DNA from: Candidatus Poribacteria bacterium
GTDB lineage: Bacteria > Poribacteria > WGA-4E > PCPOR2b
Direction: 5' to 3'
DNA length: 64,000 nt
NCBI GenBank assembly: GCA_965208325.1
Contig: OZ242326.1
Location: forward strand, 2,655,363 to 2,719,362
The position numbers and the translations under genes are program-made. The notes under the pieces are model-generated. The model worked only from the letters and a program-made list of their open reading frames with translations, had not been told where the DNA came from and searched no databases. Of this stretch, positions 5,386 to 22,359 are shown one piece after another. The stretch's first letter is position 1. Every line of letters begins with the position of its first letter.

Positions 5386-6810
5386 ATGAATTCAACCCAT
5401 TTTCCACGCTGTCCGATTTTGCTGGTAGACAACTCACAACAGTGCTTGACTGATACGAATCTTGCGCTGCATGCGGAAGGTCTTGATCGTGTCCTCCATT
5501 GTCAAGACAGCGGTAGAGTCATGTCCGTCCTATCGCAAAAGGACTTCTCAGTTGTGGTCATGGATTTGCAGATGCCAGGCTTGTCGGGTCGGAGTCTACT
5601 TGAACTGATTGTTACGAATTTCCCTAACCTTCCCGTAATCGTTCTCACCGCGCTGAACAAAGTCCAAACCGTGGTAGAGTGCATGAAAGCTGGCGCATAC
5701 GATTACATGGTCAAACCTGTGGACGGTGCCCGTCTCGCGGCAATCATTCGGCGCGGATTAGAATTCTACACACGGGAAGACCTAAATTGGCTGCCCTCGG
5801 ACACACTCGAACATCCCGACGCATTCTCTGACATTGTTACACACGACCAGGGAATGTACAAAATTTTTCAGTATATCGAGTCAATTGCCCAAACCGCCTG
5901 GTCAGTGCTGATTACGGGCGAAACCGGAGTTGGCAAGGAACTGATTGCGTCGGCACTTCACAATCTAAGCGGGCGAAAGGGTGCTTTTGTCCGGGTCAAT
6001 GTGGCGGGACTCGACGACCAGCTATTCTCCGATACGCTTTTCGGTCACAAACGTGGGGCATTTACCGGCGCGGATTCAGATCGAAATGGGTTAATCGAAC
6101 AAGCGTCACATGGCACGCTCTTTCTTGATGAAATCGGAGACCTGCACCTGGAGTCACAAATCAAACTGCTGCGCTTTCTAGAAGAAGGAACGTACTATCG
6201 GCTTGGCGATGAATTCGAGACAACGAGCAGCACCAGGACGTTAGTTGCGACCAATCGCGAGATTCAACATCTAAAGAATGCCGAATACTTTCGTACCGAC
6301 CTCTACCACCGGTTGATAACCCACCAAATTCACCTGCCGCCGCTTCGCGAGCGATTGGAGGATGTCCCAATGCTGGTTGCCTATTTTCTCGAAAGTGCGG
6401 CTAAAGAAATGGACAAGAAAACACCCGCCGTCACTAAAGAACTTTTTGACCTACTTGGAACGCACAGTTTTCCAGGAAATATCAGAGAGCTTCAGGGAAT
6501 GGTAAAAAATGCCGTTAGTCAGCACAAAGAGGGTGCGCTCTCCACGAATTCTTTTCGCCAAGAGATTGAGGAGCAAAGTATTGAGGCACACGAGGACACA
6601 ATACTTCAAGTAAGGGCGCTTGGAGTGTCGGCGCTACCCATACTCCCTAATTTGAATGAAGCTTTGAAAGAAACGGAACAACTGTTCATTTGCGAAGCCC
6701 TCAAGCGTGCCAATGGGAACCAGTCGATTGCGGCTAAACTCTTGGGTTTATCGAAATCTGCGCTGCACAAGCGCATAAGCCGCACACGAAGGTCTTCGGA
6801 CGATGCATAA
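5386..6810 (+). CDS. sigma-54-dependent two-component response regulator (NtrC/AtoC family enhancer-binding protein)
   Basis: REC domain (D at LVDNSQQ...VVMDLQMPG), AAA+ Walker A GETGVGKE, the sigma-54 contact motif GAFTGA, and a C-terminal Fis-type HTH (IAAKLLGLSKSALHKRI). Confidence 0.9.
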   Translation: MNSTHFPRCPILLVDNSQQCLTDTNLALHAEGLDRVLHCQDSGRVMSVLSQKDFSVVVMDLQMPGLSGRSLLELIVTNFPNLPVIVLTALNKVQTVVECMKAGAYDYMVKPVDGARLAAIIRRGLEFYTREDLNWLPSDTLEHPDAFSDIVTHDQGMYKIFQYIESIAQTAWSVLITGETGVGKELIASALHNLSGRKGAFVRVNVAGLDDQLFSDTLFGHKRGAFTGADSDRNGLIEQASHGTLFLDEIGDLHLESQIKLLRFLEEGTYYRLGDEFETTSSTRTLVATNREIQHLKNAEYFRTDLYHRLITHQIHLPPLRERLEDVPMLVAYFLESAAKEMDKKTPAVTKELFDLLGTHSFPGNIRELQGMVKNAVSQHKEGALSTNSFRQEIEEQSIEAHEDTILQVRALGVSALPILPNLNEALKETEQLFICEALKRANGNQSIAAKLLGLSKSALHKRISRTRRSSDDA

Positions 6811-7220
6811 CACGGCATTGGCTTTTCCCACCCGCCCGCTCTAATCTGTATCAACCCTCTCCTTCCACGCGCGATCACGCCTTCTAAAGGCGACGACATT
6901 TGGGCTATCTGTGGACATTTTGGCTACAACCCCCAAAAACCCGTGTCTAACAAGGCTTTCCACGCTTCTTAACCCCAATTTTCCCGAATCGTGTGGACAA
7001 ATTGTCGTTCCGCTTTCCATTTCGCGTCAGGACGATGGCGCGCCAGGGCGCGCCAGTCTGAAAAAAATTTAAATGCCCGAATCCCTTGGTACATCAGGGT
7101 TTCTGAGTCAAAACCGAGTCTAAATTTGGGTATAATTTTAGCTTTGGCATAGAAATTGCTCATACAATGCCCAAAGTATCTTGATTTGGAACGCGGAGAT
7201 TCGCTTCAAGGGAGGCGGTA

Positions 7221-9257
7221 TTGATGAATTTTGGGGTGTCGCGCATCTCACTTAGCGTCATTTCCTTCGTTTTGCTTGGGTGCTTGTTCTCGTTTACGCA
7301 AACCACTTCCGAGGCGTCCGATGCCTTTACGCTCATCTATGCCGGTGAAGAAGGTGGGCAGTTTGGACTGCACGGATGCGGAACCGAGCAAGTCGGCGGA
7401 CTTTCCCGACGCCAGACCGTTATACAATCCTTGCGTGAAAAACACGTCGACCCGCTGAATCTACACACCGGAAACCTCCTCGACCCGACCGACCCGAACA
7501 GCGAACTCATCTGCCAAATCGCCCTCGAAGCCTTGAGTACGATGAATTACGACTCAGTCTGCCTCGGTCCGAGTGAGTTGTGTTCCCGGATTGACTCGCT
7601 CTCCGCCATCTACGCTAATCATCCGGATGTGCCGGTTGTTTGCACGAATATAGTCGGCGCGCAATTCCCGCGCACGTTTGAAGTCGTCGAAGCGGGGCAG
7701 AGAAAAGTCGCCGTGGTTGGTCTGATATCGAAATCGTATGAGTTGGAAATTTCCGCCTACAATCCGGGTGTCACTCTCACCCATCCAACGGAAGCGCTAG
7801 AGACTTTGGGAGAAGAAATCACGCGTCAAAGTGATTTTGTCGTGGGCGTGTTTCACGGATCAGAAGCAGAAGCGCGTGAACTTGCAGAGCGATTCTCATG
7901 GCTATCCGTTCTCGTCCTCGCCCAGAACGAAGCCTCTGAATCGGATTCGGCGGCACCGATTGTTGTGGGCGGCACAACCATTGTCACCAACCCTGCTAAA
8001 GGAGAAGCGGTTGGTGTTCTGGACATTGGACTCGACGCGGATCGGGAACAAGTAGTGTCGAGGAAGAATCAGCGCGTTGCGGTCTCGGAAGGAATTGCGC
8101 CCGACGCCGACCTTGAAGCCCTGCTAGCACTTTACGATTCACTTGCGGAAGATGTCGAATTTGACGGCCAAGAGCCTGTACCTGATGACCGTGCCATCTA
8201 TATCACCTACTTTCACAAACGGGGCTGCCAGAAGTGCGTTAGAGCCAGCGAGATTTTGAAACGACTCAAAACCGAATACCCGCAGATTGTCGTCGAAAAA
8301 CGCTACGCTAAAGCCGACCAACAACTGCTTGAGGCGATGGGGGCGCTCTATAACGTGCCGCAAGTCAAACGGCTCACCACGCCAGCGGTGTTCATAGGAG
8401 ATGCGTATCTCTTGGATGAATTTAATGAGGCACAACTGGAGGAGATTGTCGGAACATACCTCGCAACGGGGGTCGCGTCTTGGATATCCGAGGCGGAAGC
8501 CAACACCGATGCGGCGGAATCCGATATCGTCAAGCGCTTTAGCGCGTTCGGAACATTGGCTGTTGCGGGCGCGGGGTTGCTCGACGGCATTAACCCGTGC
8601 GCCTTTGCCACGATTGTGTTCTTCATCTCCTATCTTACTCTCGTCGGACGCTCGCGCAAAGAAATGCTCGTCGCCGGCGGCGCATTCGCCGCAGCGGTGT
8701 TTGTAACCTACCTGCTATTGGGTGTGGGACTGCTCAAGTTTCTCTCGTTCCTTAACGAGTTCTCCGTCGTTGCCAAGTGTGTCTACCTAGGCGCTGCGAT
8801 TGGAACATTCACGCTAGCGTTCCTTAGCCTTTATGACGCTATCAAAGCCAAACAGGGCAAGGTGAAGGAGATTTCGTTGCAGTTGCCAAAATCGCTGAAG
8901 CAGCGCATCCACAGAGTCATCCGCGAACAGACACGGACATCGAGCGTTATCATCGGCGCGTTGGTCATCGGGTTCGCGATTTCTGCCCTTGAGTTGGTCT
9001 GTACCGGTCAAGTGTACCTGCCCACGATTACGTTTGTGATGGGCGTTGAGAGCATGCGCGTTAATGCCTTATCGTACCTGATTCTGTATAATCTGATGTT
9101 CATCACGCCGCTGCTAATAGTATTCGGGTTTGTGTATTGGGGCGCGACTTCGATGCAGTTAGGCGGTGTGCTGCAAAGACATCTGATTTCGGTGAAGGCG
9201 GGGACTGCGGCGTTATTGTTTGGGTTGGGGATTTGGTTGATTCTGGGTGTTATCTGA
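7221..9257 (+). CDS. three-domain membrane thiol:disulfide oxidoreductase: signal peptide + degenerate metallophosphoesterase/5'-nucleotidase-like domain + glutaredoxin/thioredoxin-like CxxC domain + DsbD/CcdA-type transmembrane domain
   Basis: CQKC motif in a Grx-like segment (YITYFHKRGCQKCV...VFIGDAYL). C-terminal 6-8 TM region with NPCAFA and LVCTGQVYLP Cys motifs typical of the CcdA/DsbD_2 family. The N-terminal domain resembles 5'-nucleotidase, but the GNHE metal-site is replaced by GPSE. Confidence 0.7.
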   Translation: MMNFGVSRISLSVISFVLLGCLFSFTQTTSEASDAFTLIYAGEEGGQFGLHGCGTEQVGGLSRRQTVIQSLREKHVDPLNLHTGNLLDPTDPNSELICQIALEALSTMNYDSVCLGPSELCSRIDSLSAIYANHPDVPVVCTNIVGAQFPRTFEVVEAGQRKVAVVGLISKSYELEISAYNPGVTLTHPTEALETLGEEITRQSDFVVGVFHGSEAEARELAERFSWLSVLVLAQNEASESDSAAPIVVGGTTIVTNPAKGEAVGVLDIGLDADREQVVSRKNQRVAVSEGIAPDADLEALLALYDSLAEDVEFDGQEPVPDDRAIYITYFHKRGCQKCVRASEILKRLKTEYPQIVVEKRYAKADQQLLEAMGALYNVPQVKRLTTPAVFIGDAYLLDEFNEAQLEEIVGTYLATGVASWISEAEANTDAAESDIVKRFSAFGTLAVAGAGLLDGINPCAFATIVFFISYLTLVGRSRKEMLVAGGAFAAAVFVTYLLLGVGLLKFLSFLNEFSVVAKCVYLGAAIGTFTLAFLSLYDAIKAKQGKVKEISLQLPKSLKQRIHRVIREQTRTSSVIIGALVIGFAISALELVCTGQVYLPTITFVMGVESMRVNALSYLILYNLMFITPLLIVFGFVYWGATSMQLGGVLQRHLISVKAGTAALLFGLGIWLILGVI

Positions 9258-9283
9258 TTTCCCATTCGTGAAAAATCTTACTT

Positions 9284-10279
9284 ATGATACGACGGAAAAC
9301 ATTTTTGGGGCTATCCACTTTAGGAATATTGGCGTTGGTTGTTGCATCTCTTTTATTCCACGGGAATCTAGCAAAATACTCGCAGCCGAGAATTGAATTT
9401 GAAGAAGAGTCATGGGACTTTGGAACCCTAGCCGTGGGCGAAAAAGTTTTCCATAATTTCAAATTTCGGAATTCAGGGGATGCAACGCTTCAAATTAACA
9501 AGATTGACAGTTCATGTGCTTGTGCCGCCACGCTGTTGTCTTCTACAACATTGAAGCCGCAAGAAACTGGAGAGCTAAAGGTTGAGTTTAAGCAACTCAC
9601 GCCGAAAAACGTTCCGAGAACTGTTAAAATCTATTCAACAGATTCCTCAACACCCGTGAAAACCCTTACAATAAGAGCCAATGTCGTCCAACCCTACGAT
9701 GTCAACCCGCCACTTTTGTATTTCGACGCGAGCGGTACAAGAGAGTTGGAGATTTTTTCTGCTGCGGATTTAAACCTAGAATTGACACAAGTAGACACGT
9801 CGACAGAATACTTGGCTGCTATGATTGGAGCGCCTGAAATCGTGCATGCCAAAGTAAGGTTCCCAGTAAAGGTCAGATTTTTTGCGTCCACCTTAATACA
9901 GAGCTTAGATGAGCAGATTACTATACGTACAAACAGGAACGTGGCCCCAATTATTATTCCCGTGCGCGTTCGAATGAGTAAAAACATCAGCCTTCATCCT
10001 AACAAGCTTTTTTTCGGCGCAGTTTCGAAAGGCAAAAAAGTTGTCCGATCGGCAATAATTTCGGTGCCCAACAGTGATACCGATATTGAACGCATTGAAT
10101 ACAGGTCCCAAGCAATCTTAACGAATTTGGTGAAAGAACGGGAAAAGAAGATTGTGGTTGAAGTTGAATTGCGTCCAGATGCCCCCTTGGGGCGTTTTAT
10201 GGAACAGATAAGTATTCATACTAACGATTCAAATACGCCGCGGTTGGAACTAGCGGCGTATGGCATAATCTTGCCTTAA
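9284..10279 (+). CDS. DUF1573 domain-containing secreted/membrane-anchored protein
   Basis: Signal-anchor, then WDFGTLAVGEKVFHNFKFRNSGDATLQINKIDSSCACAA, the DUF1573 signature (F.F.N.G...L.I..SCGC-like). A second repeat follows. Confidence 0.7.
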   Translation: MIRRKTFLGLSTLGILALVVASLLFHGNLAKYSQPRIEFEEESWDFGTLAVGEKVFHNFKFRNSGDATLQINKIDSSCACAATLLSSTTLKPQETGELKVEFKQLTPKNVPRTVKIYSTDSSTPVKTLTIRANVVQPYDVNPPLLYFDASGTRELEIFSAADLNLELTQVDTSTEYLAAMIGAPEIVHAKVRFPVKVRFFASTLIQSLDEQITIRTNRNVAPIIIPVRVRMSKNISLHPNKLFFGAVSKGKKVVRSAIISVPNSDTDIERIEYRSQAILTNLVKEREKKIVVEVELRPDAPLGRFMEQISIHTNDSNTPRLELAAYGIILP

Positions 10280-10304
10280 TTCTAATTGTAAAAACGAGCG
10301 CCAT

Positions 10305-11444
10305 TTGATGTTAACGAGCCTTCGCCAGATATATTTTACTTGCGGGTTGATGTTTGTTTGGCTGATTTTGTTGGTCAATCAGTCCTTGACAATAGAGTTT
10401 TCACTTGAGGAAGTTGTAGAGGCTGTGAACTTTTCGAGGATAGTCATTGAAGACGGAGAACTGCAGACTATCTATTTCGAAGCACCGAAGCCAGAGCGTT
10501 CATCGGCGACTAAGTTTGAATTAATTGAAGCCAATGTGGCACAACTGAAAGAAAAATATAAAATGACTAAACACCAAAAAGAGAAAACTCGGATTAAAGA
10601 AGAATTGGATGTTTTTAATCGCAGGATTGAGTATTTAAACAAAGGTCGTGGATATTACGAACAGAGAAATATTGTTTTCAAAGTCAAACAGTACGCCACG
10701 TCCCCAAATCCGTCGAAGGACTTATACGTTCGGATGAATAGCATTGACCGTCACGGCGAATATGAAGGCGATTTAGGCGTTAATAGTTCATATATTGGAT
10801 TGCTGCATCTTCCAGTCCAATACCACAATACAGTAATTAGCGATGGAGAACACACAATTTATCTGTGGGCAGACTGCACAGGAGTGAATTCGGGATTGAT
10901 AGATGAAATGCAGTCTTCTACGGTAATTCAAATACCGTGTCATCTCTGGGGTCGTTCTTATCACAAAATATTGCCGGAAAAGGTAAGTAACTTTAAAAAG
11001 TCACAACTTCATACCTCTGCTGTATATACCATTGAGTTTGAAATGGAACGCGACCTCAGTCAACTTGGTTCCGTCACCGGATTGTCCGCCATTGATAAAG
11101 TGACACAAAAAGTATGGGTTGACCCTCACCAAGGATTTTCCGTTGTCCGATTGGAAGTTCGATATTATTTTCAGGGAAATTTCACAATTGTGCAAGTTTG
11201 TCGCTACGGTCAGTTTCGAGAAATCCACGGAGGAGTCTGGTTTCCAGGCACATTTGAGAATACAACCTATAATCCGTTGGACCCAGAACAGATTACCGGT
11301 ATCTACTCATATAAAATAGAGGAAGCCGATTTGAATGTCGGCATCCCAAGCGCCTTTTTCAATAATGTTGTCCATAATGGCATCCGACTGGGATTATTGA
11401 GCTATTCTCAGGGCGCGCCTTCCGATACAAAAGATGATCAGTGA
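10305..11444 (+). CDS. hypothetical exported protein (signal anchor + coiled-coil + beta-rich domain)
   Basis: 379-aa ORF, N-terminal hydrophobic helix, no diagnostic motif. Confidence 0.5.
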   Translation: MMLTSLRQIYFTCGLMFVWLILLVNQSLTIEFSLEEVVEAVNFSRIVIEDGELQTIYFEAPKPERSSATKFELIEANVAQLKEKYKMTKHQKEKTRIKEELDVFNRRIEYLNKGRGYYEQRNIVFKVKQYATSPNPSKDLYVRMNSIDRHGEYEGDLGVNSSYIGLLHLPVQYHNTVISDGEHTIYLWADCTGVNSGLIDEMQSSTVIQIPCHLWGRSYHKILPEKVSNFKKSQLHTSAVYTIEFEMERDLSQLGSVTGLSAIDKVTQKVWVDPHQGFSVVRLEVRYYFQGNFTIVQVCRYGQFREIHGGVWFPGTFENTTYNPLDPEQITGIYSYKIEEADLNVGIPSAFFNNVVHNGIRLGLLSYSQGAPSDTKDDQ

Positions 11445-11643
11445 ACTTCTAGAGCGCATCAGCAATTTTCACGCGGCACAAACTTGCGCTCTCTCGGAAA
11501 AAGCCTTCTTATTCGCCTTAAGGAGGCATTCCATTTCAACAGGAGGAGGATTGTCATTCTGACTCAATACAATGCTCAACGCTTCGGCGTTATTGATTTG
11601 GTGCGTATGACTTCCTGAGAGAGCGACATTTGTAAGAGAGGAG

Positions 11644-12069
11644 GTGAAAAAATTGAAAAATAAGATGTTGCCATTAATCTGTACACTAACAGTTGTCGCA
11701 TTAGTGGGTGTGGCATACACTGGCTTAATTGCCGATCAGGCAGACTGGACCGCCCAACACGGTGCAGGAGGCTGTACCGTTACAGCTGTTCCGCATTGGC
11801 CGCCAGGTTTCCCACCAAGTTGTGCGAGAAACTGTGATGCGAATGACCAATGTCGCGATACCACATCTACTGGTTTCGATGGGTTCTGCGCGAATGCAGG
11901 CCATTGGACGAATTTCCAGGGTCGTGGCACGGAAGAGACTCATGTCAGGCGTATTAACCGCTATCGTTGTACCCCTGACCACCTAGCAAACGGCGATTGT
12001 GTATGCCGTCAAAGTACATTACTTAATGAGGGGCGTAAGCTGCGGAGGTGCTTACTGACCCCGTGCTAG
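11644..12069 (+). CDS. small cysteine-rich secreted protein (10 Cys in predicted mature part; GG motif after N-terminal hydrophobic leader)
   Basis: 141-aa ORF with a hydrophobic N-terminus. Cys at 44, 60, 64, 70, 82, 109, 119, 121, 133 and 141. Strong RBS agaggagg immediately upstream. Confidence 0.55.
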   Translation: MKKLKNKMLPLICTLTVVALVGVAYTGLIADQADWTAQHGAGGCTVTAVPHWPPGFPPSCARNCDANDQCRDTTSTGFDGFCANAGHWTNFQGRGTEETHVRRINRYRCTPDHLANGDCVCRQSTLLNEGRKLRRCLLTPC

Positions 12070-12234
12070 GGCTATATGCGGTTCATCGTGCGCTCTGGAA
12101 TCGTGGGGTACGTTTACCGTGCCCCACAATACCCTTTACGATCTCTCGCGTAAAATTTATGGCGGTCGCCATGCTGTAAATCGTTGAGGGAAGGTATCAG
12201 TCAATCACATCGAAATTTCTACGGCGAAATTGTT

Positions 12235-13668
12235 ATGAAGAAGGCTCTGTTTCCCATCTCAATACTTTTTGCTTTGACAATCTGCTATTTCGCTGTCCGG
12301 TATCTGGTGTCTTCAACCCCTCAAACTTCCCAGAAGCAGGACCATTTTTTGGGTCCACAAAACAAATTCATAAAAGGGGTAAATGACTGCGGCCCGCAAA
12401 CCTTGCAGATTGTATGCGAACTCTTCGGGGTCAAAGCAACGGTCGAAGAACTAGCACGGCTGGCAGGAACGGATGAAACAGGCACAACCATGGGAGGATT
12501 GTACGAAGCTGCGGAGAAAAAGGGGCTTGCCCCTTTAGGAAAAAAGTTCACAATTCAACGACTTGAAGAATTGAAGCGCCCGGCGATAGCCTTCGTGCGC
12601 AATAACCACTTTGTCGTCGTCGAATCCTTCATTGATGGTAAACTCCGAATACTTGATCCGCCCAATTTGCCGTATAATTTAACACCGCGTGAATTCACAG
12701 ATATATGGTCAGGTCATGCGCTTGTATTCGATCTGGCTCGTAAAGTTGTTTCATCATATAGCAATCCGTCCATTGTATTTGATAGTGCTTATTATCATTT
12801 TGGACGAGTGCCGCAAAATCAGCAGATTTCACACAGTTTCGCGTTTAGAAACAGCGGTGTGAAACCGTTGGATGTTTCCATTGAATCAAGTTCGTGCCAA
12901 TGTGCGGCCGTGTTAATGTCGGAAAGGCTCGTTTCCCCCGGAAAATCCGGGAAAGTCGGGATTACCTATACCCCTAAGAAGTCAAATTCAGAAACTAGGG
13001 TTAAAGAGACAGTGACGCTTCGCACTAACGACCCAAGAAGACACCTTGTGACTTTAACTGTAACAGGGGAAACGTATCCCACCGTTAAGGTAATTCCGCC
13101 CGTCCTAAATTTCAGAGAGCTGACGAAGGGCACCGCGGCAGATAGAAAATTGACCGTGATAAGTCCAAGTGCCAAGGTACTTAAGGTAGAAACAAATTCA
13201 CCTAATATTGTCGGCAGAGTTATCGATCGACCTAATGGGAAAGAAATTAAAACTTACATTTCCGTGTCTATAAAGCCATCAACTCAGCCCTCTGGCGATA
13301 AGTTATTCATTTACACGGATGACATAAACTCACCTAAAATAGAAGTTCCAATTGTGTACGAAATCGCTGCGCCGGTCGTTGTTGCCCCCAAGACGGTCTT
13401 TTTTGGAGTTGTGAATGCGGCAGAAGACAACGTAGTAAATGTCAATATCTCAAAGCGGAATGTGTCGGGAGAGTTGGAGATAAAACATATTGAACGTACA
13501 TCCCCATTCATATCCTTTAAATTGATTACTGCAAAGACCAAAAGCAATTATAATCTTCAGATTTCTATCAGTAGTGAGGCGCCAGCGGGTGCTTTACGAG
13601 ACACCGTTATCGTTCATACGAATCAAACCGAAATTCCAATACCCGTGTACGCTGTTGTAATGAAGTGA
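12235..13668 (+). CDS. membrane-anchored peptidase-C39-like domain protein fused to DUF1573 repeats
   Basis: NDCGPQTLQIV (Cys box), GTTMGGLYEAAEKKGL, NHFVVVES (His box), ILDPPN and FTDIWSGHALVF align with the bacteriocin-processing C39 domain of ComA/LagD. Downstream is FAFRNSGVKPLDVSIESSSCQCAAV, the DUF1573 signature. Confidence 0.75.
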   Translation: MKKALFPISILFALTICYFAVRYLVSSTPQTSQKQDHFLGPQNKFIKGVNDCGPQTLQIVCELFGVKATVEELARLAGTDETGTTMGGLYEAAEKKGLAPLGKKFTIQRLEELKRPAIAFVRNNHFVVVESFIDGKLRILDPPNLPYNLTPREFTDIWSGHALVFDLARKVVSSYSNPSIVFDSAYYHFGRVPQNQQISHSFAFRNSGVKPLDVSIESSSCQCAAVLMSERLVSPGKSGKVGITYTPKKSNSETRVKETVTLRTNDPRRHLVTLTVTGETYPTVKVIPPVLNFRELTKGTAADRKLTVISPSAKVLKVETNSPNIVGRVIDRPNGKEIKTYISVSIKPSTQPSGDKLFIYTDDINSPKIEVPIVYEIAAPVVVAPKTVFFGVVNAAEDNVVNVNISKRNVSGELEIKHIERTSPFISFKLITAKTKSNYNLQISISSEAPAGALRDTVIVHTNQTEIPIPVYAVVMK

Positions 13669-13978
13669 CAACCCAGTGCTTTACGTTCAGCGTATGTGAG
13701 AAATTGATTCCGATAGCTTTCGGTTGTCTTTTCGCGTTTTCCCTATCCCATCCCAACAATTGTCCTTGACGGTATAATACGAAATTCTATCCAATCTTGT
13801 AATGGTCATGTAAAATGTAGACATCGGGGACCGCATTGTTCTTTTAATTTCAGCGAAGCAGAATTTGATTGATGAAGCCAAGGTATTTCGTGAAAACTCG
13901 GTTTTTATGACCATTTAATCTATCGAAATCTACTCCATACCCTTTGGATTTCCAAACTCTCATTGATAGGATCAGTCA

Positions 13979-14860
13979 ATGCACGGTAGTAGCACGATGC
14001 GTAAACCATTTGATTGGCTAATACAAATTCTTATGAAATTTGTCACTACGATTAGGTTAACTTTGTCGGTTTTGCTTTCAATCACGTTCGCAACCTGTGC
14101 TTCTGAGAAACCAGCCAGTCTTGATATAGAGATGATTCGTATTCCCGCGGGCGACTTCAAAATGGGAACTTCGCGCACGAATGAAACCGCGGATAGTAGT
14201 CCGCAGCACGTTGTTTTTCTCAATGCGTATCAAATCGGTAAATTTGAAATAACAAATCAGCAATACCACGAATTTATCATGGCGGGTGGATATAGAAAGC
14301 GAGAAGTTTGGACTCCTGAAGGTTGGAAATTTATAGTGCAAAATCAGATTGTTGCCCCCGCCGCCTGGAATCTGTTCGGATTTAACCACCCGAGTCAGCC
14401 TGCAGTTGGGATGTCTTGGCACGAAGCAGCCGCTTTTGCAAAATGGGCGGGAAAACGTCTGCCTACAGAAGCAGAATGGGAAAAAGCCGCCAGGGGAACC
14501 GACGGTAGAGCCTACCCCTGGGGGGAAGACATAAGTGTCACCGCTGTGTTTTACAACGCTTTGGTTCGACCGCAAACAGTTGGTAGTCACCCGGAGGGGA
14601 AAAGTCCCTTTGGACTTTACGATGTTGCCGGAAACGTATGGGAATGGGTACAAGATTGGTATGACCCAAATATTTATGAAAGAAGTTCATACGACAACTT
14701 AAATGGCCCCGTTCAAGGCGACCGCAAAGTAATGCGTGGGGGTGGCTGGGATTCAAATAGACGCCATTTGCAGTGTACCTACCGCCAGCGTGAAAAACCA
14801 ACGTGGCGGCGTCTGAACACCGGTTTTCGCGTGGCGGAAAACATCAATGAAGTGCGTTGA
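13979..14860 (+). CDS. formylglycine-generating enzyme (FGE-sulfatase/SUMF1) family protein
   Basis: MIRIPAGDFKMG, WHEAAAFAKWAGKRLPTEAEWEKAARGTDGR, GLYDVAGNVWEW and RGGGWDS motifs of PF03781. Alternative start possible at 13997. Confidence 0.85.
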   Translation: MHGSSTMRKPFDWLIQILMKFVTTIRLTLSVLLSITFATCASEKPASLDIEMIRIPAGDFKMGTSRTNETADSSPQHVVFLNAYQIGKFEITNQQYHEFIMAGGYRKREVWTPEGWKFIVQNQIVAPAAWNLFGFNHPSQPAVGMSWHEAAAFAKWAGKRLPTEAEWEKAARGTDGRAYPWGEDISVTAVFYNALVRPQTVGSHPEGKSPFGLYDVAGNVWEWVQDWYDPNIYERSSYDNLNGPVQGDRKVMRGGGWDSNRRHLQCTYRQREKPTWRRLNTGFRVAENINEVR

Positions 14861-14956
14861 AAAAGCGACGGCAATTCATTTTGGTGACAGTTGGGAAGCA
14901 GGTCGAAAATGGAATACTGACTGCTCACTCGTGACTAGATTGGACAGGAGACATTC

Positions 14957-16831
14957 ATGAGGCTGCTTAAAGGCAATACTAAGGGAAGCTTAATTCTTAT
15001 CACGATTGTAATGGCACTGATTACCCTTGCACCCCGTGTATCCTCGCTTCATTCTGACTGGACTTCTAGCGATGAAGATCGGTGGATTGCCAGGTCTTTT
15101 CGCTTTTTGACGGCGCTGCATAGAGGCGATTTTGACGAGACGCTGAGTGCGTATCATCCGGGGGTAACGACAATGTGGACGGGTGCAGCGACCCTTTGGC
15201 TAAAATACCGACATCTATTATTCATGTTCGACGATGGAAAGAAGCAGATGGATAGTGAACGCGCGCTATCGCTTATCTCGGTTGAAAACCTTCAAAGGAC
15301 ACGGTTGGGCATAGCGATTCTTACAACTATTACAATTCTGATAGGATTTCACCTTATTCGCAAACTTCTTGGCTTGAAGATAGCCATTGTTTCGTCTTTG
15401 CTGATTGCATTCGATCCGACCTACTTAATGGAGACGAGAAGGATTCATGTTGATGCCCTGATGACGGGCTTTTTGGTGCAATCAATCTTATCCCTCATCA
15501 TCTACATGGAAACGCCGCGTAAGCGCGGTTATCTCCTATTCTCAGGGCTGAGTTTTGGGCTAGCCTGCCTTTCAAAGACCCCTGCAATGATTTTAATCTT
15601 TTATTTACCGCTTTTGTTTGTCCTTTATTATGGAATTCAAATCGCGGATGGGAACTCAGTCAGCCGGAGGGATTTCGCTAAACTCCTTTTTAGCCTATTG
15701 GCTTGGGCGGGCACAGCTTGTTTAACTTTCGTCGGGCTCTGGCCCGCTCTATGGATTGCCGAAATCAGGGTTGGGGGAGTTACGTTGCCACTCTTTATTG
15801 TAGCTATTCCATTGCTTATTGTGATAACTACTTGGAGTTTTACCCGGCTTGCCAATCCGTCATCCAAAATTTCGTCATTTGTAGATGCCACAATCGAAGA
15901 CCTTCGGCGGCTAATCATGGCGCTGCTATCCCTGGCTGGTATATGTCTTTTGCTAATAGTCGTGTTGATGAATGCGGGTAGCGTTATTCCGGAACTTCGC
16001 AGGGCGCTTGCAAATCCGCATGATTTTCCACAGGTATTTATGGGAAACGTGGTATTCAGTCCCGGCATGCTCTACTATCCGATAATGTTAACTATATATG
16101 CTACCCCGTTAGTTTTGCTTTCGTTCGTAGTTGGAATCTTTATTGTTTGGGGAAGGCGGGATCAGATAAAAAACTCAAAATCGCTTAGAGTTTTCTTGAA
16201 CTTCGTAATATTCGTGATTTTATACACTGTTTGTATGTCATTAGGCGCAAAAAAGTTGAGTCGATATATCTTGCCTGTCTACCCAATACTCGATATTTTA
16301 GCAGCAATCGGTTTGTGCGCCCTTGTAAAAGCGTTGGTGCGACATGTAGAATCACCTTCCGTCAAGAGGAGGTATAATCCTCTCTTAGGCAAAATGGGAA
16401 AAGCTATGGTCTCTTATCTGATTCTGCCTACAATTGTATTATACCAAATCTTATCAACAATTTCTCTACACCCCCACTATGGAAGCTATTATAATCCGCT
16501 TTTGCCAAACCAATATATTAGAAAAGCGACCATAATGGGTAGGGGAGTCGGAATAGAAGAGGCGGCCAATTATCTCAATCAGATTAGCGATGAACGGAAC
16601 ATAGTATTACGCGCATCTTCCATCGGCCGTAGCACTTTACGCCATTACTTTAATGGAAGGATTCAACCTCTTGATGCTTTGCTAGCGGCCAATTTGGCTG
16701 TTTACGATTTTATATATGTGCATGATGTCCAAATTGGTTCAGTCGAAGAAAGACTCTATTCGGACCGTGTGCCAGAATACACAGTGACGGTTAATAATAT
16801 TGACTACGTAAAATTATACAAGGCATACTGA
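14957..16831 (+). CDS. GT-C fold glycosyltransferase, GT39/ArnT/PMT-like (polyprenol-phosphate-sugar dependent)
   Basis: Over 12 TM helices with an N-terminal periplasmic-loop DE motif (SSDEDRWIARSFRF). The overall topology matches the ArnT/PMT_2 family. Confidence 0.6.
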   Translation: MRLLKGNTKGSLILITIVMALITLAPRVSSLHSDWTSSDEDRWIARSFRFLTALHRGDFDETLSAYHPGVTTMWTGAATLWLKYRHLLFMFDDGKKQMDSERALSLISVENLQRTRLGIAILTTITILIGFHLIRKLLGLKIAIVSSLLIAFDPTYLMETRRIHVDALMTGFLVQSILSLIIYMETPRKRGYLLFSGLSFGLACLSKTPAMILIFYLPLLFVLYYGIQIADGNSVSRRDFAKLLFSLLAWAGTACLTFVGLWPALWIAEIRVGGVTLPLFIVAIPLLIVITTWSFTRLANPSSKISSFVDATIEDLRRLIMALLSLAGICLLLIVVLMNAGSVIPELRRALANPHDFPQVFMGNVVFSPGMLYYPIMLTIYATPLVLLSFVVGIFIVWGRRDQIKNSKSLRVFLNFVIFVILYTVCMSLGAKKLSRYILPVYPILDILAAIGLCALVKALVRHVESPSVKRRYNPLLGKMGKAMVSYLILPTIVLYQILSTISLHPHYGSYYNPLLPNQYIRKATIMGRGVGIEEAANYLNQISDERNIVLRASSIGRSTLRHYFNGRIQPLDALLAANLAVYDFIYVHDVQIGSVEERLYSDRVPEYTVTVNNIDYVKLYKAY

Positions 16832-16875
16832 AAGGGCAAAATTTGACACATTACATTTTTTGAATCGCTGATTAT

Positions 16876-17060
16876 GGTTTATTCTTGGAGAATGATTCTC
16901 TGATTAGCGGTTCAATAGGGTTACATTTTTATGCAAGGTGTGACATCTGGCTAAATGATTTAACCCTGACGGAGGGCCGATGAACCGGATGGCGATCCTG
17001 GTGTTTTGCAAGTCAGTTCCCTTGCAAAGCATGTTGCGGCAACGTGGGAAAAGCTAAAAG
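16876..17060 (+). pseudogene. degenerate fragment (3' about 60 codons) of the 17924-18676 gene; part of a roughly 1.62 kb tandem duplication
   Basis: Nucleotide similarity of 16880-17060 to 18496-18680. Translation gives SLISGSIGLHFYARCDIWLNDL, then a frameshift, then GVLQV...WEKLKAQK. Confidence 0.75.
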
Positions 17061-17101
17061 CACAGAAATGACCGAATTTCGTTAAGAGGAAGGGTTAATA
17101 T

Positions 17102-17740
17102 ATGAACGTGTCATTGAGTTGTGCAATGATATTGGCAGTGATATTTGCTCTCGCCCTTGGGTGTGGGAACACTGACAACCCCGTTGCGGAAGACATTCAG
17201 GAACCTCCAACTGAGCCTCCACCCCATATCGTAGCGCCAATATTAGGAGAGTGGCATCTTATGGATATTATTTGGTACGTGGACGGAGTGGTTACGAACC
17301 AGAATAATACTACAGGATGGATTTACGGTGCAAACCCGAATATCCTAACATTCGCGCAAGATGGGATTTTCAATCTAACACAAAGATATCCCATACAAGA
17401 GGAATACTTAGAAATCCTTGAATGGAAAGGCAAGGGACATATCCAAGACGTTATAGTCACCTTTCGGGGAAAATATCGCATCAATGCGAATCAACTCTGG
17501 TTAAACCGGGTTGTAACTAGGGTGGAACCAAGGGAAGAAGCGCTCGCATACAGTCCCGAGTTTGGGAACCCCATATTTGTTTATGATTATTGGGCGCATA
17601 CCGATTTGGGCACGCACGGTAATCTACTACATTATTCTCTCGCTGACGATGGCAATCAACTGGAATTGAGAGCGGAAATAGTAAGCAAAAACGTTATGTA
17701 CGCAATGAATTTAATTCATCGCCGGCTAAAAAATGAGTGA
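17102..17740 (+). CDS. hypothetical lipoprotein (lipobox LALGCG)
   Basis: 212 aa with a signal peptide and Cys lipobox. Paralogous to the pseudogene at 18720-19290. Confidence 0.6.
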   Translation: MNVSLSCAMILAVIFALALGCGNTDNPVAEDIQEPPTEPPPHIVAPILGEWHLMDIIWYVDGVVTNQNNTTGWIYGANPNILTFAQDGIFNLTQRYPIQEEYLEILEWKGKGHIQDVIVTFRGKYRINANQLWLNRVVTRVEPREEALAYSPEFGNPIFVYDYWAHTDLGTHGNLLHYSLADDGNQLELRAEIVSKNVMYAMNLIHRRLKNE

Positions 17741-17923
17741 AAAAGGATATAAAACATTTGAGCATTAAAGGACGAACGCGAGCCGTCTGTCTCCACACTC
17801 GCAAAATCTACGTGATTGCGATCGATGTTGACGCCGAGGGGTTTAGTGTCAATTGGGTAAAGAAGAAACCAGGTGCAATCTTTGCATTTCTAGACTGAAA
17901 ATCTAATTGGGAGATGAGGTATT

Positions 17924-18676
17924 ATGCCAATTAAAACTTTCCGATTCATGATTGTATTCTTGGAAATCATTGTTGTGTTTGGACGATTGTGTACGGCGGG
18001 CACGTGGATAGACGATTTCAGTGACCCAACCCTTCGAGATTGGGGGGGCGGATTGTTAAATGACGAGGTTAGAGCAACTGTTGTTGATGGTCAATTTAAT
18101 TTCAGTGGAAAAAAACAAGGAGCAAATCATAGAATGACGAATTGGGAATTAGGGGAAATCCAAGATTTTTCGCTTGAGTTGAAGTTTATGGTTAGAAACG
18201 TCCGAAATCCAATGGATAGCGGTTGGTCGGTTCAATATACCGCCTTTAACGAAAAAACGATGGACTTGGAAGGGATAGCGGACTTTGGGTTTAGATATGC
18301 ACTAGGAGCTAATGTAGAACCTAATGTTGCGTTTGTAACGATTATTTGGCGGTTGCCGGCGAACAATCCACAAATCGGGAAGTTCAAGGAAATAGCCCGC
18401 TTTGCATACGAAAATGAGGTCTGGTACACGTTGAAGATTGAGCGCGAAGTGAACCGATACCATTTTTGGATTGGAAATATTGGTTTAATCACAGAGGATG
18501 ATTCTCTGACTAATGGTTCAATTGGGTTCCACTTTTATGGAAGGTGTAACATCTGGTTAGATGACTTAATTGTGACGGGTCACGATGTGCCCGATGGAGG
18601 GCCCGGCGTTTTGCAAGTCAAAGCCTTAGCAGAGAAATTAACGACTACCTGGGGAAAGCTGAAAGCACGGAACTGA
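17924..18676 (+). CDS. hypothetical secreted jelly-roll-like protein
   Basis: 250 aa with an N-terminal signal. Its 3' end is duplicated as a remnant at 16876-17060. Confidence 0.55.
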   Translation: MPIKTFRFMIVFLEIIVVFGRLCTAGTWIDDFSDPTLRDWGGGLLNDEVRATVVDGQFNFSGKKQGANHRMTNWELGEIQDFSLELKFMVRNVRNPMDSGWSVQYTAFNEKTMDLEGIADFGFRYALGANVEPNVAFVTIIWRLPANNPQIGKFKEIARFAYENEVWYTLKIEREVNRYHFWIGNIGLITEDDSLTNGSIGFHFYGRCNIWLDDLIVTGHDVPDGGPGVLQVKALAEKLTTTWGKLKARN

Positions 18677-18719
18677 CTGAAACCGTTCAGATGAGGAGCG
18701 AACCTAGATGTAATTAACA

Positions 18720-19290
18720 TTGATATGGGCAACGGTATTGGGAATTTTACTTGTTTGCATCGTCAGGGGTGGAAATACAGACAATCCCATTGGAGTAGAT
18801 GAACCGAAATTACTAACCGATACGCCGACGGAAAGCGTCCCCCCAATTCTGGGAAGTCGGCGTTATATGGAGATATTTTGGTTTAGGGATGGAGAAGAAA
18901 TAAACCGGACAGGTGTGAACAGTGCCGGGCGGCTTAGTCGCTGGGTACCGATTATCCTGACATTGGTGTCGGATGGAATTTTTGACGTAGTAAGCAAATA
19001 TCCCATTGGAGAGTCGGTCGCATACAAACCGAAGCTTGAATGGTTGGCTTGAACATGTCCAAGAAACTGTTGATGCCTTCCGTGGTAAATATCACATCAG
19101 CGCGAATGAAATCCGGTTCAACCTAGTTCAACCTAATCGTAACGAGTGTAAAGCCAAAGAAAGCACCGAAATTGATTCAGAATTTGACACTCTGAATTCT
19201 GGTATAATGATGGAGGAGCGCTGGATTATTCCCTCACTGACGGTGGGAATCACCTTGAATTAAGAAGGGGAAAAGGGGAATACAATACAT
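18720..19290 (+). pseudogene. frameshifted paralog of lipoprotein gene 17102-17740
   Basis: GGNTDNPIGVDEP...PPILGSRRYMEIFWFRDG, then FRGKYHISANEIRFNLV and LDYSLTDGGNHLEL appear in three different frames, implying at least 2 frameshifts. Confidence 0.75.
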
Positions 19291-19380
19291 GGTGAAATTC
19301 ATCCATCGTCGATCAGAAGCCGAATAGCATTTCAGTATTTTAGATAGAAACCAAGATTGCACCCGCGATTAAGAATATAC

Positions 19381-20409
19381 ATGGTGAAAGCATCAACGCA
19401 AATCTCTATCATCATTTCTGCGTTCAACGAAGCCCCAACCCTCAAATCTCTTTATCATCAGATTCGAGATGTGATGGGGATAATTGGGGCGCCATACGAG
19501 GTTATCTTCGTTGACGATGGCAGCACGGACGGTTCCTTCGGCATCATGCAGGAGCTTTATCGTCTCCATCAAGACTGGGCGTCCGCGCTGGCAGTTGCCC
19601 CAAGCCGTTCAATTCAAGAATTTGAGGAGAATCAAACCCACGCAACATCCCAAGTTATCGTCATCCAATTTCGACGCAATATGGGCAAGGCGACCGCTTT
19701 GGCAGCGGGGTTTGCGCGTGCAATAGGAAAAATTGTCATTACGATTGACGCCGATTTGCAAGATGACCCAAACGAAATTCCAAACTTGTTGGCAAAAATT
19801 GACGAAGGGTACGATGTTGTATCCGGTTGGAAAACCAATCGTCAAGATTCTTGGTCTAAAGTGTTGCTCTCAAGAATCTTTAATTGGGTGGTCTGTTTGT
19901 GTACGCATCTGGATCTCCACGACATCAACTGTGGATTCAAAGCCTATAGGCGCCGAGTAATTCGGGAACTCTTGGTGTACGGAGATCGACATCGGTTCCT
20001 GCCGATTTTAGCTCACCAACATGGCTTTCGGGTCACAGAAGTGCCCGTGAAACATCAGCGGCGACAGTACGGCAGATCGAAATATGGCTTTGAACGTATA
20101 CCCCGCGGCTTTTTGGATTTGTTGAGCATTCTCTTTCTCAACCGATACTTGAAACGCCCGCTCCACTTCTTTGGGGTACTGGGATTCTTATGCCTGATCA
20201 GCGGCACAGTAATTAACATTTACCTCACCGTATTGTGGTTTGTTCAAGATGGCATTGGGTTTCGTCCCCTGCTCATGTTGGGTATTTTGTTGATGATTTT
20301 AGGGCTGCAGTTTCTTTCCATCGGATTTTTGGGTGAGATGCTTACTAACGCCTTTGAGCGTTTAGATCGTCGCTACCCTATCGAAAGGGTGCTCGAACAA
20401 GAGGAATAA
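19381..20409 (+). CDS. GT2 polyprenol-phosphate glycosyltransferase (DPM1/ArnC/GtrB-like) with C-terminal TM helices
   Basis: ISIIISAFNEAPTL...VIFVDDGSTDGS...NMGKATALAAGFARAIGKIVITIDADLQDDP motifs, with 2-4 C-terminal TM segments. Confidence 0.85.
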   Translation: MVKASTQISIIISAFNEAPTLKSLYHQIRDVMGIIGAPYEVIFVDDGSTDGSFGIMQELYRLHQDWASALAVAPSRSIQEFEENQTHATSQVIVIQFRRNMGKATALAAGFARAIGKIVITIDADLQDDPNEIPNLLAKIDEGYDVVSGWKTNRQDSWSKVLLSRIFNWVVCLCTHLDLHDINCGFKAYRRRVIRELLVYGDRHRFLPILAHQHGFRVTEVPVKHQRRQYGRSKYGFERIPRGFLDLLSILFLNRYLKRPLHFFGVLGFLCLISGTVINIYLTVLWFVQDGIGFRPLLMLGILLMILGLQFLSIGFLGEMLTNAFERLDRRYPIERVLEQEE

Positions 20410-20418
20410 CACGAAAAC

Positions 20419-21393
20419 GTGATTTCCATCATTATCCCGACTTACAATCGAAAAGATGAACTCGAAGACTTACTCCCCTCGCTCAAGAATCAGAAGTGTT
20501 CGATCGCTTTTGAGGTTATTGTTGTGGATGACGGTTCGACGGACGGAACGCGAGAACTACTAAAGAAACTAGCCGAAGACTGGAATGGAAGATTGCGGTT
20601 TTTTGAGCAAAATCATGCTGGACCGGGGGCTGCTAGGAATCTGGGAATCAAACACGCTCAAGGCGATATCTTAGCTTTTACCGATTCAGATTGTATTGCA
20701 CCACGCGGATGGTTGAACAAGCTGACCTCGGTTTTCGACAACCCGCAAGTTGGAGCGGCTGGCGGCCCTGAGTTGGCACCAACCGATGATTGTTTGCCTC
20801 GAAGGTGCCAGAGTTACGTAATGACGGCATTTCTCACCACCGGCGGGCTGCGGGGAAGGAAGGGAAAGAAACTTGGAGTTTATTATCCGCGTGGATTTAA
20901 TATGGCTGTCCGAAAGCACGTCGTTGATGCGGTTGGAGGAGTTCCTAATCGATTCCAAGGGGAAGATATTCTCTTAAGTTTAAAAGTAAAGCAGATGGGT
21001 TACACCCTCGAATATGTGCCGGATGCAGCAGTTTATCATCACAGACGTGCAACGTTGAGCGGTTATTTTAGGCAACTTTACCGAATGGGAAAGGCGAGAG
21101 TCGAATTGGCTTATCTGCACAAATCCTTGTTGGAAGCGGTATACATGTTGCCTGCGCTCGTACTCCTAATTTCCATTTCGCTAAGCGTTGGCGCGTTTTT
21201 CTCTGAAACGCTTTTTAAGATTGCTGCAGGGGGAATGATAATAGCGTTAGTTTTTCTTACTGCCGTCGGTATTGATAGCACAATCCGTCTGAAAACGCTC
21301 AAGGCTTTTGGGATTGTGCCCTTTCTGTTTATCACACAACAGACAGCCTATGGGTTGGGAACCATCGTCGCTGCATTAAGGAAACAAGTATGA
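20419..21393 (+). CDS. GT2 family glycosyltransferase with C-terminal TM helices
   Basis: ISIIIPTYNRKDEL...VIVVDDGSTDGT...FTDSDC (DxD) motifs. Confidence 0.85.
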   Translation: MISIIIPTYNRKDELEDLLPSLKNQKCSIAFEVIVVDDGSTDGTRELLKKLAEDWNGRLRFFEQNHAGPGAARNLGIKHAQGDILAFTDSDCIAPRGWLNKLTSVFDNPQVGAAGGPELAPTDDCLPRRCQSYVMTAFLTTGGLRGRKGKKLGVYYPRGFNMAVRKHVVDAVGGVPNRFQGEDILLSLKVKQMGYTLEYVPDAAVYHHRRATLSGYFRQLYRMGKARVELAYLHKSLLEAVYMLPALVLLISISLSVGAFFSETLFKIAAGGMIIALVFLTAVGIDSTIRLKTLKAFGIVPFLFITQQTAYGLGTIVAALRKQV

Positions 21394-22307: not shown

Positions 22308-22359
22308 GAAGAAGCACTTTTGAATAGTCTCAACCCTCCGATGAAATGAACGCCAATCA

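Follow-up and report, generated by a model that had tools for sequence, protein, structure and literature searches.

Double-glycine leaders are regarded as Sec-independent export signals that are cut by the cytoplasmic C39 domain of an ABC transporter. In the thiol pathway of DsbD, the domains follow the order beta, gamma and then the Ig-fold alpha domain, leading from a membrane core through a thioredoxin (Trx) fold to an Ig fold. A stand-alone periplasmic C39 peptidase has also been described: FapD, of the Pseudomonas Fap amyloid system, is exported by Sec, is active and needs its catalytic Cys (PMC5557850). The FapD substrate is not known, and the Fap proteins have no canonical double-glycine (GG) leader (PMC5557850). 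Here we describe a gene cluster of Candidatus Poribacteria in which a C39 domain, fused to DUF1573 domains, is encoded beside a small Cys-rich exported protein and a putative thiol-redox membrane protein. The cluster lies in a stretch of 64,000 nt (the window) from a Candidatus Poribacteria bacterium (assembly GCA_965208325.1, contig OZ242326.1), and coordinates are window positions.

The + strand of positions 7221-13668 holds five open reading frames (ORFs) of 678, 331, 379, 141 and 494 aa, separated by gaps of 25-208 nt; the initial annotation of this DNA had counted six co-oriented genes. The likely start of the first gene is ATG 7224 and that of the small Cys-rich gene is TTG 11653, with GGAGG 9 nt upstream; for the protease, ATG 12235 is preferred because the orthologues have 474-479 aa. 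The conserved cluster runs on downstream with an FGE-fold (formylglycine-generating enzyme) gene and then a GT-C glycosyltransferase gene. All nine products encoded from 7224 to 18676 have an N-terminal hydrophobic segment, and the entire operon is therefore one of extracytoplasmic proteins. Judged by their sequences, these genes are one functional module, and we consider it probable (about 0.6) that they encode a pathway by which a small disulfide-rich protein is exported by Sec and matured outside the cytoplasm, and in which C39 cleavage would act together with a thiol relay.

The last of the five genes joins a C39 domain to DUF1573, as the initial annotation had recognised. Peptidase_C39 (PF03412) matches residues 67-183 of the 494-aa ORF with 86.2 bits (cut-off 22), with NDCGPQ at residue 67 and NHFVVV at residue 141, and DUF1573 (PF07610) matches the same ORF with 60.5 bits (cut-off 26.1). 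The putative catalytic residues Cys52, His125 and Asp141 (477-aa numbering) align with C21, H99 and D115 of PCAT1 (4ry2), a peptidase-containing ABC transporter (PCAT), and also with the ComA structure; these columns are invariant in our alignment A5. The triad, which that annotation had left to be aligned, is kept in 27/27 of the cluster homologues examined. The protein starts with MKK followed by a hydrophobic helix, and its bulk is therefore predicted to be periplasmic. Among distant C39-DUF1573 members (P0145, P0165, P0240 and P0168 in alignment A6), Ser stands in the place of the catalytic Cys or there is a deletion at that site, and these variants may be inactive or may use serine as the nucleophile.

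To survey the locus, we used the first protein as query against one genome per prokaryotic species. This retrieved 34 loci, all of them from Candidatus Poribacteria and often present as two diverged copies per genome, with a DUF1573 protein in 31/34, an FGE-fold gene in 31/34 and a C39 domain in 22/34. The first protein itself has at least 450 homologues at 90% clustering, and all of the named ones are from Candidatus Poribacteria. The source genome has at least one further copy of the first gene, 85% identical (P0026 and P0018 on the same contig), so the module is multi-copy in this organism too. Three arrangements can be told apart. In 21 loci, a domain of the 379-aa type is fused to C39-DUF1573, giving a protein of about 800 aa that consists of a clear signal peptide, a LolA-like domain, C39 and DUF1573. 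The split form, with separate LolA-like and C39-DUF1573 genes, is found in the window, L001, L002, L018, L021 and part of L022. A further nine loci (L025, L026, L029, L031, L034-L037 and L039) encode, besides a 379-like protein, a DUF1573 protein (about 340 aa) that has a CGC motif and lacks C39, and the small Cys-rich proteins of this C39-less variant have only a signal peptide.

The C39-DUF1573 protein also extends beyond this phylum. Its profile found at least 553 representatives at E <=1e-30, more than 100 of them full-length at about 470 aa with an export signal, and one of them is annotated as coming from Armatimonadota. A TA06-like metagenome contig (L042/L050) carries three small Cys-rich genes with the leaders LSEKDMNAFFGG/AC, LTHEEMVLFVGK/VC and LYDLEKISGG/VC (slashes here and below mark the end of a segment), three LolA-like genes, one C39-DUF1573 gene and a Trx-Trx-membrane protein that is 42% identical to the first protein of the window. 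In a second metagenome locus (L045), a small gene (LMEEDMEIVSGG/W) is accompanied by a LolA-like and a C39-DUF1573 gene, and in a third (L041), C39-DUF1573 is followed by the Trx-membrane protein. The gene for a Trx-fold plus membrane protein is adjacent in 34/34 Poribacteria loci and in both of the non-Poribacteria loci that have enough flanking sequence. In the other phyla, a second Trx domain replaces the UshA-like domain of the first protein and no FGE-fold gene was seen. These non-Poribacteria loci thus define the core of the module as the precursor, the LolA-like protein, C39-DUF1573 and the Trx-membrane protein, and the UshA-like, FGE-fold and GT-C parts look like additions made in Poribacteria. 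C39-DUF1573 therefore recurs beside small Cys-rich ORFs in Poribacteria and in other phyla, as the initial annotation would lead one to expect; the LolA-like, FGE-fold and GT-C partners had escaped it.

The strongest link between the protease and the small proteins is in their leaders. In nearly all Poribacteria loci there are small ORFs (one or two per locus, 120-180 aa) whose products start with a Sec-type N-terminus and contain 8-14 Cys. In the C39 loci, a signal peptide, often ending in AxA, is followed by a canonical double-glycine leader, for example ASA/EPVALSNDTMSKLIGG/CK in L013 and LTILDMEEMSQIAGG/S in L010 and L023. We derived a leader consensus from 26 small Cys-rich ORFs, all of C39-containing locus types: L at -12 (24/26), S or D at -11, E at -8, M at -7 (23/26), I or L at -4, G at -2 (26/26) and G at -1 (24/26). 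This is the classical LSxxELxxIxGG, situated after a signal peptide, and a hydrophobic Sec-type signal precedes the double-glycine leader in every precursor. When leaders were scored with a leave-one-locus-out matrix, the loci with the fused N-C39-DUF1573 protein gave 10-43, L018 and L022 gave about 16, and the C39-less loci gave -12 to 3. None of the nine small ORFs from loci with the C39-less DUF1573 protein has a double-glycine leader (0/9), and L025 fits this pattern. The association of leader and C39 is significant (Fisher's test, P ~1e-5), with cases that are not phylogenetically independent. The initial annotation had proposed a secreted, disulfide-rich product processed by a C39 protease outside any transporter, and the presence of the leader in C39 loci, together with its absence in the nine C39-less loci, speaks for that proposal. 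In L011 (2535-3058), the signal peptide and GG leader (LNMEEMEHLAGG) are intact and the Cys-rich part is frameshifted, which could be a pseudogene or an assembly error.

Behind the leader, the mature parts have 79-129 aa, with 8, 10 or 12 Cys in 23/25 complete cases. The leader is more conserved than the mature part in 11/11 pairs, and in the tandem pair of L010 the identities are 100% and 37%, respectively. In the lineage of the window, the small gene evolves fastest, with 43% identity to L001 compared with 72-88% for the neighbouring genes. From the conserved leader and the hypervariable core, one might suspect that the product interacts with other cells or organisms. The small proteins found no match in Pfam, NCBIfam, PHROGs or a PDB profile search, and no leader model of NCBIfam or Pfam matched them.

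The small protein of the window belongs to a subtype with a modified leader. Its 141-aa ORF has 11 Cys, one inside the hydrophobic leader and 10 after it; the initial annotation had given ten in all, which holds for the part after the leader, and had placed a Gly-Gly at residues 44-45 that lies at 42-43. Compared with six orthologues (33-46% identical), G24, L25, Q29, W32, G37 and the Cys framework are invariant. The subtype has the motif W-x-x-[QR]-x-G-[AG], then two residues, then Cys, which in the window reads W..Q.GA/GGC. A cut after G-A places W at -7 and D at -8, in the same register as in the canonical leaders. The conserved site is the G-A two residues ahead of the Gly-Gly that had been picked. 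The window protein has no good AxA site, and its hydrophobic N-terminus may therefore be an anchor that is removed by the membrane-anchored protease. A lipoprotein signal was considered and rejected, since Ile occupies -1 in the invariant L-I-C and this motif opens the hydrophobic core, where a lipobox would close it.

The 379-aa ORF has its homologue in the N-terminal domain that precedes C39-DUF1573 in the fused proteins (BLASTP against the N-terminus of the 807-aa L004 protein, E = 8e-8), and this fusion, seen in 21 loci, connects the gene with the protease. No Pfam family matches the window protein. Foldseek with a weak model of it gave 3bk5 as the top match (1.6e-7), then 4z48 and LolB 9tpm, with TM-scores of 0.26-0.44, and the best PDB matches all belong to the LolA/LolB/LprG superfamily, including DUF1329. 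Pfam LolA_like (PF17131) matches below threshold in 4/5 distant homologues (4e-4 to 0.03). The small-protein genes are often duplicated (L018 12883-19147, L050 4954-10913, L010, L014 and L023), and in L018 and L050 each copy has its own LolA-like gene, the protease and redox genes being single. From this co-duplication, each LolA-like protein would seem to be dedicated to the small protein encoded next to it.

The first gene encodes an exported protein of three parts. Its first approximately 300 residues are a 5'-nucleotidase/UshA-like domain, whose profile matches 5'-nucleotidases at 8e-8 and which scores 100 bits against UshA-like NF041198, below the cut-off of 275. The metallophosphatase ligands are gone (GD has become GN, and GNHE has become GPSE), and the domain is thus, from these substitutions, a predicted pseudoenzyme. 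It is followed by a glutaredoxin-like domain (PF00462, 28.2 bits in the 678-aa ORF, cut-off 22.9) with an invariant CQKC at residues 336-339, and by a membrane part with six helices according to hydropathy. C460 (NPC, in INPCAF) lies in helix 1 and C594 (in ELVCTGQ) lies in helix 4, and both membrane Cys motifs are invariant across phyla. For the membrane domain, the only hidden Markov model (HMM) hit is a weak one to the ArsG family (1e-4, in 24/24 members). The initial annotation was right about the CxxC glutaredoxin domain and had not mentioned the UshA-like domain; its 'CcdA-like' membrane core is confirmed by no HMM. The layout of the protein is DsbD-like; as to membership of DsbD/CcdA, the sequences are only suggestive.

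The second gene and the protease gene share DUF1573, which reaches 91.7 bits in the 331-aa ORF (cut-off 26.1), so that the DUF1573 proteins named by the initial annotation, like its glutaredoxin domain, have Pfam matches over the cut-off. The NCBIfam model for the OS_HP2 (seleno)protein scores 69.5 bits against the 331-aa ORF and 60.6 bits against the 494-aa ORF, below its cut-off of 100. A CxC motif is kept in the first DUF1573 domain of 37/37 DUF1573 proteins from the loci, as SCAC and SCQC in the window. In the selenoprotein form, a UGC motif occupies this position (PMC9312934), and the HGCGT motif of the operon corresponds to the CxU of the UshA-like selenoprotein (PMC9312934). The OS_HP2/DUF1573 and UshA-like (seleno)protein families of ocean metagenomes have domains homologous to those of the operon proteins, with selenocysteine where the operon proteins have Cys. 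We found no assigned function or genomic context for these two families in the literature searched.

Within the proposed pathway (Table 1 lists the features), the neighbouring NtrC-type activator would control transcription from a sigma-54 promoter. With their N-terminal hydrophobic signals, all products, the 138-aa precursor among them, would be exported or anchored in the membrane. The periplasm-facing C39 domain would then cut the precursor after the double-glycine-type G-[GA] site, a step for which the comparison of loci argues, and would free a domain of about 100 aa with 10 Cys. Most substrates of the family would be soluble pro-proteins, composed of a signal peptide, a canonical GG leader of 15-30 aa and the Cys-rich domain. 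In the window subtype, the leader appears reduced to a juxtamembrane linker (W-x-x-Q-x-G-A/G-G-C), and the hydrophobic N-terminus probably serves as an anchor until the C39 cut. By analogy with DsbD, reducing equivalents could pass from the two membrane Cys of the first protein to its periplasmic CxxC and on to the CxC of DUF1573, and the Ig-like DUF1573 domains may proofread the substrate's four to six disulfides or isomerise them. Because this relay persists in loci without C39, it would serve the Cys-rich proteins and not only the thiol of the protease; a redox module that solely protects the catalytic thiol of C39 was rejected on the same ground. More speculatively, the LolA-like protein might bind the precursor or its leader, the GT-C enzyme might glycosylate the product, and the FGE-fold protein might be an accessory.

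Table 1. Features of the maturation cluster and its surroundings, in window positions
Feature	Position	Strand	Evidence
NtrC-type response regulator (receiver, sigma-54 AAA+ activator, Fis-type helix-turn-helix)	5386..6810	+	Pfam Response_reg, Sigma54_activat 2.3e-54, HTH_8
Sigma-54 -24/-12 promoter motif TGGCAT-N5-TTGCT (TGGCATAGAAATTGCT), near-consensus, ~60 nt 5' of the first gene	7145..7160	+	Sequence
677-aa exported membrane redox protein (signal peptide, degenerate 5'-nucleotidase/UshA-like domain, glutaredoxin-like CQKC, six predicted helices)	7224..9257	+	HMMs, motifs, hydropathy
331-aa membrane-anchored DUF1573 (Ig-like) protein with SCAC (CxC) motif	9284..10279	+	Pfam DUF1573 3e-26; NCBIfam OS_HP2
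378-aa exported protein, probable LolA-like fold	10308..11444	+	BLASTP, weak fold match, fusion homology
138-aa precursor: hydrophobic signal/anchor, linker ADQxDWxxxxG-[AG], ~100-aa domain with 10 conserved Cys	11653..12069	+	ORF, ribosome-binding site, orthologues
GC-rich stem-loop, 10 bp, ~35 nt past the small-gene stop codon, without U-tract	12103..12127	+	Predicted
477-aa membrane-anchored C39 peptidase with three Ig-like DUF1573-type domains, the first with SCQC	12235..13668	+	Pfam, alignments
Exported FGE-fold protein	13979..14860	+	Pfam FGE-sulfatase (PF03781) 4e-57, 194 bits
624-aa GT-C (PMT_2/ArnT-like) membrane glycosyltransferase	14957..16831	+	Pfam PMT_2 (PF13231) 47.7 bits, cut-off 26.1
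Two exported proteins, 212 and 250 aa, without family match	17102..18676	+	Synteny

Several observations weigh against this pathway, or against parts of it. The C39-less loci may form one clade, and the correlation between leader and C39 may then reflect one loss event, so that the number of independent events is small. In the window's own protein, cleavage is less certain because the leader is degenerate: it scores -4 (z = 0.4) and retains only W at -7, D at -8, G at -2 and A at -1. As the leader matrix does not score this subtype, its cleavage rests on the short G-[AG] motif. The oxyanion-hole Gln, at -6 from the Cys in PCAT1 and ComA, is not conserved in the 27 homologues; residues such as GVNDCGP, LLLTCGP and ALLECGP surround the Cys instead, and the HMM match begins at profile position 11. 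The LolA-like assignment of the 379-aa protein is based on a low-confidence AlphaFold model, with a predicted local distance difference test score (pLDDT) of 52. For the membrane domain of the first protein, there is no Pfam match at E up to 10, including DsbD (PF02683) and DsbD_2 (PF13386), and PDB sequence and profile searches with the first protein returned no CcdA/DsbD. An hhalign comparison with E. coli DsbD gave E = 0.005 with a probability of 7%, aligning C594 with the Cys of the DsbD PCT motif. The AlphaFold model of the glutaredoxin and membrane parts has a pLDDT of 47 and is unusable in the membrane region, and the direction of electron flow is for this reason a guess.

The alternatives can be weighed against the same observations. 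One of them is that the operon handles thiols, sulfur or metals: the small protein would be a periplasmic carrier or buffer of sulfur, selenium or metal, on which the SoxB/UshA-like domain, the EgtB/FGE-like protein and the CxC/CxxC modules act, and the C39 cut would only activate it. In its favour, the first protein has an N-terminal domain that matches two families, SoxB and the UshA-like (seleno)proteins, the closest match of the FGE-fold protein is the EgtB C-domain, and both the DUF1573 and UshA-like families have selenocysteine members. Yet the metallophosphatase ligands are lost, and the FGE-fold protein has neither the FGE Cys pair nor the DinB domain found in EgtB. The redox and FGE-fold parts persist where C39 has been lost, as a carrier of this kind would allow; in other phyla, however, Trx takes the place of the UshA-like domain and the FGE-fold gene was not seen. 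A carrier would moreover be expected to be conserved, and the mature domain is the part that evolves fastest. We regard this alternative as unlikely.

It is also quite unlikely, in our judgement, that the C39 domain is a non-proteolytic docking or chaperone domain, or cuts something else, with the small proteins matured by signal peptidase alone. The C39-like domain of HlyB would be the model for such docking, and the lack of conservation of the oxyanion-hole Gln, the Ser in place of the catalytic Cys in the distant P0145, P0165 and P0240, and the degenerate leader of the window would agree with it, as would FapD, whose substrate is likewise not known. Against this stand the triad retained in 27/27 cluster homologues, in contrast to HlyB-type domains, which lack the catalytic Cys, the invariant G-G behind a full leader consensus, which makes sense only as a cleavage site, and the disappearance of that leader where C39 is absent.

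Very improbable is a classical double-glycine bacteriocin or signal peptide exported by a PCAT-type ABC transporter that is encoded elsewhere, with the local C39 redundant. The canonical leader consensus, and a peptidase of the family that processes such leaders, are what this would predict, but the Sec-type N-terminus ahead of the leader in every precursor is not, and the protease itself sits behind a signal peptide or anchor. We found no PCAT-like ABC protein (Walker A plus LSGGQ, at least 450 aa) in any of the 34 loci, and the window protease scored 27.6 bits against TIGR01193 (cut-off 523.85 for this ABC exporter family) and 52.5 against TIGR03796 (cut-off 853.3), with only its peptidase part aligned. 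That the genes are unrelated envelope proteins adjacent by chance, which the initial annotation had kept as its own alternative, is scarcely credible: all products are exported and 2/5 genes have no family assignment, but the conserved gene set is found in 34 Poribacteria loci (including diverged paralogous copies in one genome) and in other phyla, the 379-aa type is fused with C39-DUF1573 in most loci, and the leader co-varies with C39.

The FGE-fold protein has a gap or a non-Cys residue at the LCHDSYC site of the FGE structures 6muj and 2q17, and hence lacks the catalytic Cys pair; its closest match is the C-domain of EgtB, a sulfoxide synthase (168 bits with the EgtB model, cut-off 360), and the DinB domain of EgtB is missing. 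Formylglycine formation in the small protein was rejected, as there is no conserved CxPxR in that protein and no catalytic Cys pair in the enzyme. The GT-C protein has approximately 12 predicted hydrophobic segments. About half of the loci have a GT-C gene, either PMT-like, as in the window, or STT3-like, as in L004-type loci. The STT3/AglB-like protein of L004 (12474-14891), with homologues in L027, L028, L030, L034 and L039, has about 800 aa (TIGR04154, 1.4e-14) and replaces the PMT-like one; GT2 genes often follow it, which hints at periplasmic protein glycosylation. In the window, GT2 and sugar epimerase/dehydratase genes occupy 19357-23295 (in synteny with L001 10121-14762) and may supply the sugar donor of the GT-C enzyme. 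The 212-aa and 250-aa proteins have homologues in L001 and L002, and in L018 the gene of the 250-aa type has been duplicated along with those for the LolA-like and small proteins. Most clusters also encode a membrane-anchored acidic/coiled-coil protein of about 220-230 aa (L025 5485-6144, L031 13890-14549, L039 3861-4511 and L004 8651-9340), which in the C39-less variant has a Cys-rich zinc-ribbon-like end (CPxC...CxxC...GGDVIDF) resembling a primase zinc finger, odd if the protein is exported. In the distant marine locus L004, bacterial proteasome, Pup-ligase-like and UBact genes adjoin the cluster (17061-21651).

The gene for the NtrC-type activator adjoins the sigma-54 promoter motif, and its product is the probable regulator of the operon. 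In 17/36 loci, the same sigma-54 motif is found in the 600 nt that precede the homologous first gene, against about 0.01-0.03 per locus expected by chance; two more strict matches occur on the + strand of the window, at 44154 and 52044. A scan for sigma-70 promoters and terminators gave nothing over background. A stem of 10-12 bp is predicted at the place of the window's stem-loop in 5/5 orthologous loci (including L001, L002, L121 and L123), with changed base pairs and Z-scores of -2.6 to -3.65, and may serve to stabilise or attenuate the transcript. A hairpin 3' of the small gene brings to mind those found after the structural genes of bacteriocins and lantibiotics.

Returning to the maturation pathway, we can extend it tentatively, with slightly less than even odds, to a widespread, as yet unrecognised 'pre-pro' class of bacterial proteins. 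These would be exported by Sec and carry a GG leader that is cut in the periplasm by a C39 folding machine, made up of LolA-like and Ig-fold CxC domains and a split-DsbD-like relay; removal of the leader would be coupled to the correct pairing of Cys in four to six disulfides and perhaps, in Poribacteria, to glycosylation as well, and the products could be hypervariable effectors against competitors, phages or a host. We found no description of a C39/DUF1573/LolA-like/glutaredoxin module in literature searches on Poribacteria, periplasmic C39, DUF1573, ArsG and VKOR. If the pathway is as proposed, the recognition of leaders by C39 is separable from transport, against the textbook assumption, and the cluster provides the first clear pair of substrate and enzyme for periplasmic C39 peptidases such as FapD. 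It would also offer testable roles for DUF1573, whose CxC is the selenocysteine site in relatives, and for a large family of Trx-fold plus membrane proteins. The hypervariable disulfide-rich proteins come from uncultured bacteria, and their genes, present in several copies in Poribacteria, are found in candidate phyla too; as natural products or symbiosis factors, the proteins may merit interest. Genome mining that looks for GG leaders only beside ABC transporters would miss all of these genes.

Among known systems, the PCATs (PCAT1, ComA and LahT) resemble the operon in the papain-like triad of C39, in the leader consensus and in precursors with a conserved leader and a variable core. Unlike them, the operon protease is without a transmembrane/ATPase part, is predicted to be extracytoplasmic and is fused to LolA-like and Ig-like CxC domains, its oxyanion Gln is not conserved, and the leader follows a Sec signal and is not itself the N-terminus. 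FapD is a single domain encoded in an amyloid-export operon with the FapF outer-membrane channel, whereas the C39 protein described here is multi-domain, with redox, LolA-like and Ig-like partners, and the adjacent gene in C39-DUF1573 loci supplies an obvious canonical candidate substrate. In Pfam and NCBIfam, the operon proteins that were tested match no Fap family, and the small proteins are rich in Cys and do not have Asn/Gln repeats. With the pathway from DsbD/CcdA to DsbC/DsbG, the operon would share its layout: a six-helix core, here predicted, with a Pro-preceded Cys in helix 1 and a Cys in helix 4, a periplasmic thioredoxin-fold domain with CxxC, and an Ig-fold domain with a putative redox Cys pair. 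It differs from DsbD in that the Ig-like partner is a DUF1573 CxC domain on a separate protein, where it is fused to the protease, and in the added inactive 5'-nucleotidase-like domain. An analogy can also be drawn with conotoxins and defensins, which have a signal peptide, a conserved pro-region and a hypervariable mature domain with a fixed Cys framework; there is no homology with these, and the processing protease and redox helpers of the operon are different and are encoded in the same operon. The arrangement thus appears to be a variant of the known theme of C39 and double-glycine processing, moved to the extracytoplasmic compartment.

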